Position numbers and translations under genes: made by a program
Notes under the pieces: model-generated
What the model saw: only the letters and a program-made list of their open reading frames with translations
Told to the model about the DNA's origin: nothing
Databases searched by the model: none
Source: an uncultured Candidatus Melainabacteria bacterium
GTDB lineage: Bacteria; Cyanobacteriota; Vampirovibrionia; Gastranaerophilales; Gastranaerophilaceae
Reading direction: 5' to 3'
Length of the DNA stretch: 64,000 nt
Assembly: GCA_934754515.1 (NCBI GenBank)
Contig: CAKVIG010000004.1
Span: 41,764-105,763 of the forward strand
Shown here: piece after piece, positions 1 through 61,155 of the stretch
How positions within the stretch are numbered: position 1 is the stretch's first letter
How the letters are laid out: each line of letters begins with the position of its first letter

Positions 1-288
1 TATCGTAATTCAAATTTTTGTGCAAAATTTTATCATTATCCTAATGCTTATAACCACCCTGAAATAGCTAAAGGATTTGAAAAAGCAACAAAAGAGTATC
101 CAAACTATGTTTTATTGCAAGACCAAATTTCTTATTTTGGTGAAGACCAATTCTATTTGCTAGGTAAAAATGTTACAGTTTTTGATACAATGTCTTTGAC
201 AAATAGAAGAAAATATTTGACAAACGAAGATGTTGTTGATAAATTGGTCGGGCTTTTTCATAAAATGTTAGGGAATGAAGTTAAATAA
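1..288 (+). CDS. 3' end of an unidentified protein (open from window edge)
   Basis: Frame 1 is open from nt 1 to TAA at 286-288 (...YLTNEDVVDKLVGLFHKMLGNEVK*). The stop overlaps the next ATG (TAATG). No family recognised. Confidence 0.5.
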   Translation, partial: YRNSNFCAKFYHYPNAYNHPEIAKGFEKATKEYPNYVLLQDQISYFGEDQFYLLGKNVTVFDTMSLTNRRKYLTNEDVVDKLVGLFHKMLGNEVK

Positions 289-56560: not shown

Positions 56561-56911
56561 TTACAGCTCTAAATCACCTAACAATTTAGAATTTGTTACA
56601 AGCTCTTTTAACACATCATCTTCAAACGGGTCAACAACGCCATCTTTGAATAATTCTTGCATTTTTTCTAAATATGAAATATTGTCTTTATCGCTGGTTG
56701 CTATTTTAGTGAACTTATTTATATCAAGATCTCTTTGGAAAAGTTCCATTGCGTTAGAAGAAATCTCTGTTTTATCAACATAAGGGTTTGAATTATACCC
56801 TGCTTTTTGAAGATTGGTTCTTACTGAAGCAAGGTTAATGACATTACTCGCATTGTTTAATTGAGAGTTATAAAACAAACCGTTATTATTGTCATTAATA
56901 TTGTTGAACAT
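56561..56911 (-). CDS. hypothetical protein, possible FlgM-like anti-sigma-28 factor
   Basis: 116 aa, Asn-rich. The segment DKTEISSNAMELFQ resembles the FlgM D-x-V-x-L-S motif, and it neighbours a sigma-28 promoter. The assignment is tentative. Confidence 0.4.
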   Translation of the reverse strand: MFNNINDNNNGLFYNSQLNNASNVINLASVRTNLQKAGYNSNPYVDKTEISSNAMELFQRDLDINKFTKIATSDKDNISYLEKMQELFKDGVVDPFEDDVLKELVTNSKLLGDLEL

Positions 56912-57044
56912 ACTGCCCCAATCTCCCCAATTATTTTCTTACATTATCATACATTTTTTTTAATTTGTTATCAACCGTTTGGATGAGATTTAAAAAGATT
57001 CCTGCTCTATTTGTAAATAATTGTAACAATATAAATTAAAACTC

Positions 57045-57956: not shown

Positions 57957-59786
57957 CTATATCAACTGCAACGCAATTGACGGATTTTGATTGGCGGTTG
58001 CTAGAAGCGTTGCAGATGCTTGTTGCAAGATTTGATTGCGGATATATTCGCTCGAAAGTTCGGCAACATCCGCGTCCTTAATTGTTGATTGAGTTGACGT
58101 CAAGTTGTTAATATTCACACCGATTGATTCAATCGCACTCATAAGGCGGTTTTCTATTGCACCTAGTGAGGTTTGTTGTTCGTTTATGCTTTTTAGAAAA
58201 TCATCAATAGTTTCCAAAGCATTTGTATTTGACATCGAAAGCCCATCTAAAGAGAAAATATCTAATTGAGAAATCGAAAAACCTAATTGGTCATTGTCCG
58301 TACCATTAATACCGATTTGCAATCCCATGTCTAAGTCGGGTGCAAGATAGTTTGGCAAAATACCTTGAGCTATCAAGTCTTTTAATTCTTTTTGAGTAAC
58401 TTTTGTCGCAGTACCGGAAGTAGGAGTACCTGAACCTATACCATTCAGATTCCCTGATTTATCAACAAAATAGGAAGTATCAACAGTTAAATTTTCAGCA
58501 GAGCCTATTATTCCTCCTTTTATACTGGCATCTATTATATTGCTTATTGAATAACAATTCTGTACACTTATATTACTCCCAGTATTAGCAGAACCAATCA
58601 GCCCACCTGCTTTTGATGTTGAACTTATTGTAGCAGTCGCATAACTGTTAGATATCCAAGCCTGATATGAAAGTATACCCGCCAAACCACCAACAGTGTT
58701 TCTTCCTGTTACATTGCCTTTAAAAAAACTATTTTGAATTTCTATATCGAATACTCCTTGTCCTATTAAACCACCACTTGCTCCCTTAGCATTGTTTACA
58801 TTGCCAATTAAATAACTATTATTTATATGAACACTGAATCCATATCCAACCAAGCCTCCCGTTGCTCCTAATATAGAAGCACCACCACCAGTTATATCAA
58901 CATTTTCTACACCGATATTTTTTATTACACTTTGACCCGCATACCCAAATAACCCTTGATAATTCTTTGCTCTATTAATGAACAAATTATCAATTTTATA
59001 CCCATTGCCATCAAAAGTACTTCGAAAACTATTACTTTTAGTTCCAATCGGTGTCCAACCACCGTTTTCTCGGTATGCAGATAAGTCGATGTCGTTAGCA
59101 AGAACGAATTCGGCATTGCCTGTAACGTTACCGTTATTGGTCATTGTTGCGAGTTTTGCAAGTTCTTCTGCGGTGGAAATTGAGTATGTGCCTGAGTCAA
59201 GGTTTGTGTTTTCATCTACGCTTGCAAGGGTGGTCATCGCGGAGGTGTCACGTTTTTGGACAGCCTCAATAAATCCCGAAGAAGTTGCTCTTGGGGAAGA
59301 TTGGGTTGATGTAGTCGAAGCAGTGCTTAAAGTTGCTATTGCGTTTGTTGCAATATTCGTTGAGGTTCCGCCGTTCAAGAGATTTATTCCATTGTACTGC
59401 GTTGTATTTTGGATTCGGAAAAGTTCTTTGACTATTGCGTTTGCTTCTGAATTTAAAGCGTCTAAAGAAGTTGAGCCATAAGTTCCGTTTTGAGCCTGTG
59501 TTGCAAGTGAACGAAGGCGCGAAGCCAAATCTGACATTTGAGAAAGAGAGCTTGAAGCTGTTTGAACCATATCTAAGCCCATCATTGCGTTTTCTTCTGC
59601 TATAGTGTATGCGCCGAGTTTTGTGGTGAGCGATGTCGAAATAGAATAATTTGCAGCATTATCTTTGGCATGATTGAGTTTGAAGCCCGTTGTCATGCGC
59701 TCGATTGCGTTATTAAGTCCATTGGTCGAGGTTTTGAGGTTCGATTGGACGATGAGAGATGAGAGGTTTGTGTTGATGGTTAGCAT
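57957..59786 (-). CDS. flagellin with GLUG-motif beta-helix insert
   Basis: 609 aa from the ATG behind GGAGG. N-terminal D0/D1 (MLTINTNLSSLIVQSNL...AKDNAANYSIS) and C-terminal D1/D0 (LGAIENRL...QNPSIALQLI). The central ~250 aa carry repeats of GGLxG...N(S/C)Y type. The track's 34-codon N-terminal extension runs into a repeat element. Confidence 0.9.
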   Translation of the reverse strand: MLTINTNLSSLIVQSNLKTSTNGLNNAIERMTTGFKLNHAKDNAANYSISTSLTTKLGAYTIAEENAMMGLDMVQTASSSLSQMSDLASRLRSLATQAQNGTYGSTSLDALNSEANAIVKELFRIQNTTQYNGINLLNGGTSTNIATNAIATLSTASTTSTQSSPRATSSGFIEAVQKRDTSAMTTLASVDENTNLDSGTYSISTAEELAKLATMTNNGNVTGNAEFVLANDIDLSAYRENGGWTPIGTKSNSFRSTFDGNGYKIDNLFINRAKNYQGLFGYAGQSVIKNIGVENVDITGGGASILGATGGLVGYGFSVHINNSYLIGNVNNAKGASGGLIGQGVFDIEIQNSFFKGNVTGRNTVGGLAGILSYQAWISNSYATATISSTSKAGGLIGSANTGSNISVQNCYSISNIIDASIKGGIIGSAENLTVDTSYFVDKSGNLNGIGSGTPTSGTATKVTQKELKDLIAQGILPNYLAPDLDMGLQIGINGTDNDQLGFSISQLDIFSLDGLSMSNTNALETIDDFLKSINEQQTSLGAIENRLMSAIESIGVNINNLTSTQSTIKDADVAELSSEYIRNQILQQASATLLATANQNPSIALQLI

Positions 59787-59807
59787 GAGAACCTCCAAGA
59801 GAGAGCT

Positions 59808-60207
59808 AATAACACCCTCTCCCCTGCCCCTCCCCCGAGGGAGGGTGTGAGATTTGTTTGGAGAATGTTTGCCCTTACGGGTAAACACCTCACCCTTTCC
59901 CTCTCTGTCACTAGCGTGACATCTCTCCCACTAAATGGATGCTGCGGGAGAGAACAAAGTTTTAATAATAATCTATACCTCTCCTGCAAGGAGAGGGAAT
60001 GACCAAGATTTGCTTGGGTAACGTCACCCTCACCCCTTGAGGGAGAGGGTAGAAAATCAAGTTGAGATTCACAGTGTGAAGCGAAGCTTAGATTTTCGGG
60101 TGTGGGGTCAATTGGATTTTTGGTTAAAGATTGCGTTAAGCAAGAAGAAGGATTGAACCCTCTCCCTAACCCTCTCCCTCGGAGAGGGAATAACCAAGAC
60201 GCGTTTG
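59808..60207. repeat. cluster of GC-rich palindromic elements upstream of flagellin
   Basis: At least five CCCTCTCC/GGAGAGGG-type hairpin modules in tandem, starting 22 nt upstream of the flagellin ATG. Confidence 0.8.
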
Positions 60208-60258
60208 TTTGGTTAACAGATATGCTTAAATCATTGGCAGAGCAGGCCTTTAGACTTA

Positions 60259-60267
60259 CCCCCCCCC
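60259..60267. repeat. C9 (G9 on gene strand) homopolymer
   Basis: Nine consecutive C residues in an otherwise AT-rich spacer, 473 nt upstream of the flagellin start. Confidence 0.9.
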
Positions 60268-60523
60268 GAAACAGTTAATTTCAGAGAGTTTGAGCAAGTG
60301 ATAAGTATTTTTCATCACACTTCTCGGCTGTCTGCTTCTCATTTTTGACACATATCCCTATGTTAGTCTTTCTATTATACTATCTTTAATTATACAATTC
60401 CACATTATTAAGATGTAGTAACATTTCATGAAGTGGATTGTTACAATTGTTTACAGTTGCGGGTTTTGTTGGGTGAGGAACGTTGACTGTGCAAGATTTT
60501 GCATATCGCAATGCGGGCTGTTT

Positions 60524-60771: not shown

Positions 60772-61155
60772 TTACGCCAAATAGTCTAAAATAGCTCCGC
60801 CGATTTCTTCATTAGGATCAAACGGACAATCTTTAGGCGGATTTATAGAATTCCTGATAAGCATCGCACACAGAGGTCCAAACGCATCAGGAACTTTTAT
60901 CTTACGATAAATTCCTGCTAAATAAGTTTGTATATTCGGAGAATTCGTATCATTGTATTTTGACAAAGTAGGATAAAGTTCAACAACATCTTTATTGCCT
61001 TCATCTAACATTAAATTTAGCATATATAAATTTTCCAAAACCTCATCTTCCGATTTTGGATTCTCTAAAGAAGATTTTATTTGTGCCATACTTTTACTGT
61101 CCTTGATATCAAAAGTACAGTAATTTCTATATTGATTCGGATACGATACACTCAT
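60772..61155 (-). CDS. hypothetical protein co-transcribed with pilD
   Basis: 127 aa. Its start lies 2 nt after the pilD stop. No family recognised. Confidence 0.6.
   Translation of the reverse strand: MSVSYPNQYRNYCTFDIKDSKSMAQIKSSLENPKSEDEVLENLYMLNLMLDEGNKDVVELYPTLSKYNDTNSPNIQTYLAGIYRKIKVPDAFGPLCAMLIRNSINPPKDCPFDPNEEIGGAILDYLA

Follow-up and report, generated by a model that had tools for sequence, protein, structure and literature searches.

A flagellin gene from an uncultured Gastranaerophilales bacterium with a predicted GLUG-type beta-helix as its variable region

Flagellin is usually viewed as a propeller subunit and as a ligand of innate immunity, and we know of few flagellin outer domains with an established extra function. 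A flagellin gene in a 64,000-nucleotide stretch of DNA (here called the window) from an uncultured member of the Gastranaerophilales, gut relatives of cyanobacteria, raises the question of what else a filament might display. An initial interpretation based on the letters alone (below, the sequence-only reading) had proposed a GLUG-type beta-helix for its variable region, similar to those of IgA1-protease-type and other large surface proteins, which would give the flagellum an adhesin- or enzyme-scaffold-like surface and suggest a binding or host-interaction role. To our knowledge, these inhabitants of human and animal guts are without a cultured representative for flagellar work. We addressed the question computationally.

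The open reading frame runs on the minus strand, which the sequence-only reading had left unstated, from an ATG at 59786 to the stop codon at 57957 to 57959 and encodes 609 amino acids; the features recognized in and around it are collected in Table 1. The mechanical open reading frame is limited by a GTG farther upstream, at 59888. We take 59786 as the real start because the MLTINTNLSSL beginning and a GGAGG sequence 6 nucleotides upstream of it are common to all of the paralogs described below. The public protein collection contains an identical 609-amino-acid protein (P0002).

Table 1. Features of the flagellin gene and its upstream region (positions in the window)
Feature	Position	Strand	Basis
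Whole flagellin gene, 609 aa plus stop codon (57957-57959)	57957..59786	minus	Stop-free translation; Pfam Flagellin_N, Glug, and Flagellin_C
N-terminal D0/D1 helical core, aa 1-140	59367..59786	minus	PF00669; model helices; phmmer to solved flagellins
Ser/Thr/Ala-rich low-complexity linker, aa 141-169, GTSTNIATNAIATLSTASTTSTQSSPRATSS	59280..59366	minus	Predicted disordered, pLDDT <50
Conserved junction (GFIEAVQKRDTSAMTTLASVDE) and N-terminal beta-helix cap, aa 170-276	58959..59279	minus	pLDDT 80-97
Beta-helix coils, one degenerate (~aa 277-305) and five GLUG	58464..58958	minus	Spacing, pLDDT, Foldseek
Repeat scored alone by Pfam Glug, aa 361-388	58623..58706	minus	PF07581, profile positions 1-28 of 28
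C-terminal cap and return segment, aa 442-482, YFVDKSGNLNGIGSGTP...VTQKELKDLIAQGILPNY	58341..58463	minus	Model and conservation
C-terminal D1 hairpin and D1/D0 helices, aa 483-609	57960..58340	minus	PF00700; model helix 523-600
Proximal leader, Shine-Dalgarno GGAGG (59792-59796)	59787..59826	minus	Common to all three long paralogs; leader alignment
~437-nt block of GC-rich palindromic repeat units in 5' leader	59827..60263	minus	Leader comparison, blastn
Upstream block of 195 nt, at least 97% conserved in all three long paralogs	60264..60458	minus	blastn

Both flagellin termini are complete, as the sequence-only reading had claimed. Flagellin_N (PF00669) matched residues 4 to 140 with 102.8 bits against a cutoff of 26.6, covering profile positions 1 to 137 of 139, and Flagellin_C (PF00700) matched residues 524 to 609 (57960 to 58217) with 65.7 bits against a cutoff of 23, covering positions 1 to 86 of 86. 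The predicted model contains long helices at residues 7 to 33, 40 to 100, and 108 to 128 of the N-terminal core, and phmmer matched the protein to solved flagellins at E values down to 2e-34. Besides, the C-terminus ATLLATANQNPSIALQLI is common to all eight flagellins that a survey of the genome recovered, i.e., three long paralogs with a GLUG-type module (the gene described here, C4, and paralogs C1 and C11) and five short flagellins of 284 to 364 amino acids, whose D0/D1 regions are 43 to 60% identical to those of the 609-residue protein. The same genome encodes the partners that assembly of a filament requires: for the junction protein, a FlgL-like open reading frame of 361 amino acids (C1:28192-29277); for the cap, a FliD_C domain (156.6 bits); and the chaperone FliS (110.2 bits). 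By domain identity, the 609-residue protein is a genuine flagellin.

It is conceivable that such termini serve only as a ticket for type III export, in which case the product would be a soluble or loosely attached exoprotein or would occupy a special site near the hook or tip rather than the bulk filament. The D0/D1 regions of the long paralogs do form a group apart from those of the five short flagellins, and an insertion in the leader of two paralogs (437 nucleotides; see below) might lower expression. However, both termini score like those of ordinary flagellins, the D1 hairpin segments YNGINLL and LQIGINGTDN are intact, the ribosome-binding site (GGAGG) is strong, and the members of the family have kept these termini over deep divergence, as expected if polymerization is under selection. 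We consider this alternative improbable.

The sequence-only reading was right that flagellin termini flank an insert, whereas its estimate of about 250 residues was too small: a 29-residue linker, variable in length and sequence among homologs according to their consensus, is followed by a folded module of about 313 residues (residues 170 to 482). The N-terminal cap carries the motifs EFVLANDIDLS, WTPIG, and FDGNGYKI, which align to FQLGADIDM...W...FDGDSHVIKN of the Bacteroides protein 3n6z, and the columns of the junction and cap that are invariant over 41 homologs comprise R179, D180, T181, M184, T185, E226 to L229, I233 to S236, W244, P246 to G248, and F258 to G262. The motifs that had been quoted for the insert were all found, and its "five or six repeats" correspond to five clear cores and one degenerate unit. 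The cores, GG[LI][VIA]G, begin at residues 310, 338, 366, 394, and 424 (spacings of 28, 28, 28, and 30 residues), and four of the five are followed by I/V.N[SC][YF]; the degenerate unit, QGLFG...IKNIG, lies at about residue 277. In the model, the coils consist of repeating sets of three to four short strands each, with pLDDT above 90. The insert passes the Pfam Glug (PF07581) cutoff, with 28.4 bits against 20.5, although only one of the five repeats (residues 361 to 388) is significant on its own; a six-frame search of the genome gave 22.2 bits at the same site. The C-terminal cap is modeled as two strands (residues 448 to 452 and 457 to 463) and a helix (465 to 473), and Y439, L468, I472, Q474, G475, L477, and Y480, in or near it, are conserved among flagellin homologs. 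No tandem repeats at the DNA level, which would be a sign of recent expansion or slippage, were found in this gene or in paralog C1, implying that the coils are old and have diverged at the DNA level.

Since a fold search with the full-length protein mixes matches to the flagellin core with matches to the beta-helix, the insert alone was used for structural comparison. AlphaFold predicted it to be all-beta (pLDDT 91.4, pTM 0.89). A Foldseek search with this model retrieved 3n6z at an E value of 6.8e-9 (TM 0.67/0.66, root mean square deviation of 3.8 Å, 22% identity over 325 columns) and IgA1 proteases at TMq values of 0.46 to 0.56. A profile built from the insert likewise matched 3n6z (E 6.7e-16) and M26 IgA1 proteases (E 1e-13 to 3e-12); when phmmer was run on the PDB with the insert as a single sequence, IgA1 protease came up at E 0.13 to 0.16 only. 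The similarity to IgA1 protease is limited to its N-terminal beta-helix, at chain residues ~169 to 383. Judged by the profile match to 3n6z and the fold prediction that agrees with it, the GLUG pattern is not a product of chance, and the proposal of a GLUG-type beta-helix in the variable region is borne out by both. An ordinary D2/D3 flagellin fold, which was also considered for the insert, was ruled out by the predicted beta-helix and the Foldseek matches.

Many right-handed beta-helices are carbohydrate-active enzymes, and one conceivable reading is that the beta-helix is itself a hydrolase or lyase and the filament a catalytic surface, comparable to flagellinolysin. Proteolytic flagellins do exist (Eckhard et al. 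2017, PMC5595980), a pectate-lyase-like cluster was included in a survey of flagellin outer domains (PMC11532411), and our Foldseek search returned weak matches to pectate/pectin lyases and tailspikes. However, the 609-residue protein contains no HExxH motif and has only two histidines and one cysteine in its whole length. No peptidase or other enzyme family was detected in it with Pfam or NCBIfam, the Pfam matches being Flagellin_N, Flagellin_C, and Glug only. It does not belong with the M26 IgA1 metalloproteases, as the catalytic HExxH...E site and the Peptidase_M26_C domain are absent; nor with the flagellinolysin type (Flagellin_HExxH), as the hypervariable region has no HExxH metallopeptidase domain; nor with the pectate-lyase superfamily, for which there was no Pfam match and the best lyase or hydrolase folds gave E values of 0.009 to 0.04 and TMq of 0.19 to 0.39, with TM from 0.18 to 0.39 for such folds overall, against 0.67 for 3n6z. 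Besides, the solvent-facing positions of the coils are unconserved between paralogs, and IgA1 proteases do not use the homologous domain for catalysis: in Streptococcus pneumoniae IgA1P the beta-helix is part of an N-terminal domain (NTD) that makes contact with the Fab of IgA1 and acts as a gate to the active site, and catalysis resides in other domains (PMC7695701). The enzyme-scaffold idea of the sequence-only reading found no support here, and the enzyme reading of the insert was dropped for want of a catalytic motif or family, and we regard an enzymatic flagellin as extremely improbable.

The protein is not a one-off but belongs to a large family that is lineage-specific among named genomes. 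In about 110 of the 120 best-matching protein clusters, a GLUG module of this type is enclosed by flagellin termini, with lengths of 519 to 929 amino acids and from 5 to at least 18 repeats; the upper figure comes from the longest member that was read, P0103 (918 amino acids, at least 18 repeats). At least 16 of 22 genome loci contain open reading frames with flagellin C-termini, and these loci are labeled Gastranaerophilales, Melainabacteria, Vampirovibrio, "cyanobacterium," or "bacterium"; the named genomes that encode GLUG flagellins are all Gastranaerophilales or Melainabacteria. Occurrence across the order is patchy, with the family present in 17 of the 151 genomes and in 11 of the 44 genera. 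At several loci of the family only zero to three GGLxG cores are left, the N-terminal cap being kept and the coils degenerate. The one genome match from outside the Melainabacteria, in a Clostridia genome (L030), was considered as a GLUG flagellin beyond the lineage and rejected, because it is a secreted surface protein of 1391+ amino acids and not a flagellin. GLUG modules were also seen in phage proteins.

Within the genome, GLUG motifs are confined to flagellins, according to the six-frame search, and the three long paralogs are mosaics: the leader, the putative promoter block, and the termini are common to them, and the middles are different. Paralog C1 is 99% identical to the 609-residue protein in the termini and 61% in the middle, and its Glug match reaches 65.9 bits in three stretches. 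Paralog C11 is 84 and 80% identical in the two termini and 34% in the middle, and its Glug score of 17.8 bits falls below the cutoff of 20.5. At the DNA level, C4 and C11 are 99.4% identical by blastn over 899 nucleotides, from 670 nucleotides upstream of the gene to codon 76. The leader block of 437 nucleotides, whose borders are ambiguous by a few G, is identical in C11 and missing from C1. The conserved block of 195 nucleotides upstream of it is a putative promoter region. It starts with TGTAAACAATTGTAA (60441 to 60455), a genome-specific motif that recurs at another flagellin gene and at sigma-28-type promoters, with 12 sites in the genome against none in shuffles; four sites are upstream of flagellin genes, and three lie exactly 33 nucleotides upstream of sigma-28-type promoters. 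The block also holds a weak but conserved sigma-28-like sequence, CAAA-N15-GCCGAGAA, at 60321 to 60347, and the relaxed form of this pattern matches the genome 28 times against 9.2 in shuffles. No sigma-70-type consensus was found on the gene strand.

Taking these results together, we favor, as probable though well short of certain, a structural flagellin whose non-enzymatic module, of a binding/adhesive or scaffold type, would form a coat on the filament. In place of the usual D2/D3 outer region, the protein has a flexible Ser/Thr-rich tether followed by a predicted beta-helix with caps and about six GLUG coils of 28 residues. We infer the following course for assembly, geometry, ligand binding, and surface variation. 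The subunit would leave the cell unfolded via the flagellar type III channel, D0/D1 would polymerize into the filament core, and the beta-helix would fold outside, so that rigid, rod-like modules cover the filament surface. From linker lengths and confidence values, the short link on the C side suggests that the C-cap end is placed near D1, and the long disordered tether on the N side would leave room for a helix of whatever length. Most likely the module would offer a surface for binding or adhesion to ligands of mucus, host, or microbial origin, and paralogs with different middles behind a shared leader, promoter block, and termini might provide filaments with alternative surfaces.

The same paralogs, with their shared leader and termini and their different middles, would also suit an inert coat, i.e., a beta-helix that has no specific ligand and only makes the filament thicker and stiffer, as might help a cell swim through viscous mucus, while presenting an outer face that can be changed, the paralogs then serving antigenic variation or escape from flagellotropic phages or antibodies rather than adhesion. 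The variable repeat number across the family, the subthreshold Glug score of C11, the loci that keep the cap and few or no GGLxG cores, and the patchy distribution all fit with this explanation, and sheaths formed by outer domains are known to alter motility in viscous media (PMC10256154). On the other hand, the N-terminal cap and junction show dozens of invariant columns over 41 sequences, more than a simple spacer should require, although this conservation could be structural, and homologous modules elsewhere contact ligands (the IgA1-protease NTD) or are thought to be adhesive. We judge an inert coat to be a possible but rather unlikely alternative to the binding or scaffold module that we prefer. 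As for a particular ligand of that module, the contact of the IgA1-protease NTD with the IgA1 Fab suggests, by analogy, that host immunoglobulin A, or some other protein of the mucosa, might be a ligand of the GLUG beta-helix, in which case Gastranaerophilales filaments would be a multivalent antibody sink or mucus anchor and the paralogs a switchable binding set. We hold this to be very improbable; a study in chickens in which Gastranaerophilales were not immunoglobulin-coated is a weak point against IgA binding.

We know of no ligand for any GLUG module and of no tested function for the GLUG motif. The family described here presents the outer domain of flagellin as a predicted rigid rod of repeats, drawn from the gut surface-protein repertoire, whose length can be adjusted between 5 and at least 18 coils, and a genome may hold several alternative copies. 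If the rods bind, each filament would be a multivalent adhesin micrometers long; if they bind nothing, they would be a natural example of a length-tunable coating combined with surface variation. Either way, the insert module makes a ready target, with its length of about 310 residues, its high-confidence prediction, and a precedent as a soluble domain in IgA1 protease. The flagellar setting may give an easy read-out for the GLUG motif. GLUG modules have been proposed as parts of adhesins in other gut microbes, and the function of the motif has been described as unknown (PMC9723798). Our literature search found nothing relevant on a GLUG domain or a hypervariable beta-helix in flagellin and nothing on flagellin structure in Gastranaerophilales.

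Among known systems, the module has its closest free-standing counterpart in BACOVA_03286 of Bacteroides ovatus (PDB 3n6z, "putative immunoglobulin A1 protease"), which shares the capped beta-helix fold predicted here, the N-cap motifs (DIDL, W, and FDGxxHxIxN), and the GGxxG...NCY coils, whereas the insert is flanked by D0/D1 and a Ser/Thr tether. We take 3n6z to be a structural-genomics entry of untested function. The beta-helix of the M26 IgA1 proteases (S. pneumoniae IgA1P, PDB 6xjb, 6xja, and 7jgj; Gemella haemolysans, 7uvk and 7uvl) has homologous GLUG coils and the same fold; it is non-catalytic, and the flagellin insert is likewise without a catalytic motif. The flagellin is not a protease and has no counterpart of the G5 domain, of the LPXTG anchor, or of the middle and C-terminal catalytic domains (HExxH...E) of IgA1P. 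Giant GLUG surface proteins of the same order, with open reading frames of 2085 to 6347 amino acids and several modules each, are 41 to 44% identical to the insert in the closest cases; a T9SS-sorted protein of 966 amino acids and a Bacteroidales "GLUG motif-containing protein" are 35 to 37% identical to it, and the secreted Clostridia protein has the same cap motifs. Such proteins take the Sec or T9SS route out of the cell and stay anchored to its surface, whereas here the module sits in a flagellin and would take the flagellar type III route. The flagellinolysin family follows the same principle, a foreign domain in the hypervariable region between D0/D1 that is displayed by the thousands on each filament, but the domain inserted there is a metallopeptidase with an HExxH motif (Eckhard et al. 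2017, PMC5595980), in contrast to the repeat beta-helix without a catalytic motif described here. Finally, Sonani et al. [quoted passage not shown] Outer domains of beta-helix type and co-opted outer domains were already known from the survey, none of them with an experimental structure.

The long flagellin gene on contig C4 of the source genome lies on the minus strand, a correction to the sequence-only reading, and runs uninterrupted for 609 codons from an ATG at 59786 to a stop at 57957-57959. The longest mechanical ORF opens at a GTG at 59888; we take 59786 as the likely start because the protein then begins with the flagellin-typical MLTINTNLSSL, GGAGG stands 6 nt upstream, and the start is identical in two paralogs. 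Pfam detected Flagellin_N (aa 4-140, 102.8 bits) and Flagellin_C (aa 524-609, 65.7 bits), and NCBIfam returned only flagellin and FlgL models, every one below its equivalog cutoff, as expected because the lineage is divergent. Thus, the gene is an intact flagellin with complete polymerization termini. Two ORFs of 116 and 127 aa flank the locus, neither with a Pfam match at an E value of ≤0.01.

Features of the C4 flagellin, its leader, and the other flagellins of the source genome (C followed by a number, contig of that genome)
Feature	Location	Strand	Properties
Long flagellin C4	window 57957-59786	minus	609 aa
D0/D1 N-terminal helices	aa 1-140		
Ser/Thr/Ala-rich stretch	aa 141-169 (window 59280-59366)		predicted disordered, pLDDT < 50; varies among homologs
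Conserved junction (GFIEAVQKRDTSAMTTLASVDE)	aa 170-199		R179, D180, T181, M184, and T185 invariant in the 41-sequence alignment
N-terminal cap	aa ~200-276		single helix; EFVLANDIDLS, WTPIG, FDGNGYKI
Six coils	aa 277-441		three to four short strands each
C-cap	aa 442-482		short helix
D1 hairpin (LQIGINGTDN...) and C-terminal D1/D0 helices	aa 483-609		
Leader insertion	window 59827-60263	minus	several GC-rich palindromic units, ccctctcc...ggagaggg type
G9 run	window ~60259-60267		left junction of the insertion
Shared upstream block	window 60264-60458		195 nt; opens with TGTAAACAATTGTAA
TGTAAAnAATTGT[AT]A site	window 60441-60455	minus	
TGTAAAnAATTGT[AT]A site	window 57012-57026	plus	
TGTAAAnAATTGT[AT]A sites	C5:151522, C6:142962, C9:76050, others		
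Flanking ORF	window 56561-56911	minus	116 aa
Flanking ORF	window 60772-61155	minus	127 aa
Long flagellin C1	C1:228829-230883		667 aa; Glug 65.9 bits; coils more numerous and cleaner, at least 8
Long flagellin C11	C11:4794-6770		610 aa; junction and cap kept, coils degenerate; Glug 17.8 bits, under the cutoff
Short flagellins (n = 5)			284-364 aa

Between the flagellin termini lies a non-flagellin middle of about 340 aa; the sequence-only reading had rightly seen an insert here and had put its size at about 250 aa. We derived its anatomy from the C4 sequence, a 41-sequence alignment, and two AlphaFold runs. Cores of the form GG[LI][VIA]G occur at aa 310, 338, 366, 394, and 424 (spacing of 28, 28, 28, and 30 residues), with I/V.N[SC][YF] after each of the first four, and a degenerate unit stands ahead of them at about aa 277. 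All the repeat motifs quoted in the sequence-only reading were thereby recovered, and the Glug profile (PF07581) scored 28.4 bits, over the Pfam gathering score of 20.5. A separate model of aa 170-500, built with 49 aligned sequences, reached a pLDDT of 91.4 and a pTM of 0.89. We also observed that a Ser/Thr-rich disordered tether (aa 141-169) separates D1 from the β-helix; in flagellins, stretches of this kind are candidate sites of O-glycosylation.

Querying solved structures with the insert sequence alone gave a marginal match (IgA1 protease, E value of 0.13). A profile built from eight inserts matched 3n6z, which is Bacteroides ovatus BACOVA_03286, deposited as a "putative immunoglobulin A1 protease," at an E value of 6.7e-16, and it matched the M26 IgA1 proteases of streptococci and Gemella at 1e-13 to 3e-12, bearing out the kinship with the IgA1 protease GLUG module proposed from sequence. 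The alignment spans the cap motifs as well as the coils. Besides, the predicted fold matched 3n6z with an E value of 6.8e-9 (TM 0.67/0.66, rmsd of 3.8 Å over 325 columns) and the IgA1 proteases with a TMq of 0.46 to 0.56, and its best matches in a viral structure library were phage and giant-virus proteins of the GLUG type. These profile and predicted-fold matches identify the modeled insert (aa 170-500) as a member of the GLUG β-helix family and rule out an ordinary D2/D3 fold. A pectate-lyase-type enzyme is also ruled out, since pectate/pectin lyases, along with tailspikes and pentapeptide-repeat proteins, matched far more weakly than 3n6z (E > 0.009, TM < 0.4).

The source genome (1.95 Mb, 34% G+C, 98% complete) encodes a flagellar apparatus, including both FliD and FliS. 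Its nine Flagellin_N matches comprise one FlgL-like protein and, as the survey of flagellin paralogs revealed, three long flagellins (C1, C4, and C11) and five short ones. A six-frame Glug profile search of the whole genome matched nothing but the flagellin genes C1 and C4, so the motif exists only within flagellins in this organism. The long paralogs share the start, leader block, and C terminus of C4 and differ in their middles: protein identity to C4 over the first 140 aa, the last 90 aa, and the middle was 99, 99, and 61% for C1 and 84, 80, and 34% for C11, and the short flagellins reached 43 to 56% and 51 to 60% at the two ends. At the DNA level, C4 and C1 are 92 to 93% identical both through codon 280 and from codon 462 onward, the difference lying essentially in the coil array. 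This is the pattern expected if gene conversion or recombination keeps the ends and leader alike and the middles different. Indeed, an 899-nt stretch that begins 670 nt ahead of the ATG and ends at codon 76, beyond which the genes diverge, is 99.4% identical between C4 and C11 and points to recent gene conversion between them. Tandem Repeats Finder found nothing in the C4 and C1 genes; therefore, the coils did not arise by recent DNA duplication.

The 195-nt upstream block is common to all three long paralogs. C4 and C11 have an insertion of about 437 nt, identical in the two, that separates the shared block from the final 40 nt ahead of the ATG; the C1 leader lacks this insertion and joins "tttcgggg" straight to "caggggagaggg". 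The motif TGTAAAnAATTGT[AT]A has 12 sites in the genome, versus none in shuffles. Four are upstream of flagellin genes (the three long genes and the short C9 gene), and three precede consensus sigma-28-type promoters, TAAAGTTT-N-GCCGATAA, by exactly 33 nt, with TAAAGTTT as the -35 element. The motif may serve in the motility regulon as an upstream promoter element or as a regulator site, and these positions loosely tie the C4 gene to that regulon. On the gene strand of the C4 leader there is no sigma-70 consensus, and the sole candidate promoter is CAAA-N15-GCCGAGAA, a weak match, though conserved.

A word-seeded protein search with aa 190-500 as the query (E ≤ 0.001) matched 2,822 proteins. 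Among the best 120 clusters at 90% identity, about 110 are flagellins with the same middle, 519 to 929 aa long and some present on up to 119 contigs. The same termini, junction, and cap recur in the members that we read fully, and the number of coils ranges from 5 to at least 18; named database entries list these proteins as "hypothetical protein." Among species-representative genomes, we confirmed 22 loci, at least 16 of which code for an ORF with a flagellin C terminus (up to five such ORFs in one genome), and related loci in named genomes are labeled Candidatus Gastranaerophilales, Gastranaerophilaceae, Melainabacteria, or "Vampirovibrio." The sole match outside the lineage, from a Clostridia MAG, proved to be a large secreted surface protein rather than a flagellin. 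The family is selected for both the flagellin termini and the GLUG middle.

The module has a patchy distribution in the order (17 of 151 genomes, 11 of 44 genera), where it occupies either flagellin-sized ORFs or giant ORFs, the latter 2,085 to 6,347 aa long with several modules each. The closest giant-ORF modules are 41 to 44% identical to the C4 insert, on a par with flagellin copies of the same genome. Three giant ORFs in other genomes of the order (3,667 aa, G132:C34; 6,347 aa, G027:C1; 4,702 aa, G022:C34) carry many tandem GLUG β-helix modules with up to 44% identity to the insert. It is possible that the giant ORFs were donors or recipients of the flagellin module. Elsewhere, the nearest non-flagellin relatives are Bacteroidales surface proteins (35 to 37% identity), one with a T9SS sorting domain. 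We infer that, within this lineage, a flagellin likely captured a surface-protein module, after which coils were gained and lost and decayed.

The subunit would be exported N terminus first via the flagellar channel and would polymerize through D0/D1, and the β-helix would fold outside and coat the filament. The usual rise per β-helix turn is 4.8 Å, so the roughly seven turns that run from cap to last coil would form a rod of about 3.5 nm, or 4.5 to 5 nm with caps. The C-cap end is probably held near D1, because only about 10 poorly predicted residues link the C-cap helix to the D1 hairpin, compared with about 30 disordered residues ahead of the junction. The N-side tether would take rods of any length, which would explain the tolerance of the family for 5 to 18 coils with similar linkers. 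By analogy, we favor a binding or adhesive surface as the role of the middle because GLUG precedents exist and the cap is strongly conserved. The N-terminal domain of IgA1 protease, which holds a GLUG β-helix, contacts Fab (PMC7695701); other precedents are presumed adhesins of gut archaea, the giant surface proteins of the order, and phage proteins. The chief alternative is a coat that is inert and exchangeable, serving mechanics in mucus and evasion of antibodies or flagellotropic phages; it fits well with the mosaic paralogs and with the coil decay in some family members. The binding surface and the inert coat are not mutually exclusive.

Foreign outer domains in flagellins have precedents, such as proteolytic flagellins and Ig-like domains. 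In 2024, an AlphaFold survey assigned flagellin outer domains to 682 clusters; among these are cluster #35, which is pectate-lyase-like, and a "protease" cluster that has homologs outside the flagellins, and none has an experimental structure. Neither GLUG nor the Gastranaerophilales/Melainabacteria lineage is named in it (PMC11532411). Our literature search found no paper joining GLUG with flagellin. GLUG flagellins are real, widespread within one gut lineage, and uncharacterized, and the concept would not be unexpected to specialists in flagellar outer domains. The C4 flagellin differs from flagellinolysin in that it has no HExxH, only one Cys and two His in the whole protein, and no peptidase family in Pfam or NCBIfam; therefore, a protease or flagellinolysin-type enzyme is ruled out. 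In the IgA1 protease of Streptococcus pneumoniae, the β-helix (residues 781-1070) is part of the N-terminal domain, which touches the IgA1 Fab, shifts by about 10 Å, and gates the active site, the catalytic residues being in the middle and C-terminal domains (PMC7695701). The likeness of the C4 insert to the M26 IgA1 protease is accordingly that of a homologous β-helix, which in the protease lies within the noncatalytic N-terminal domain.
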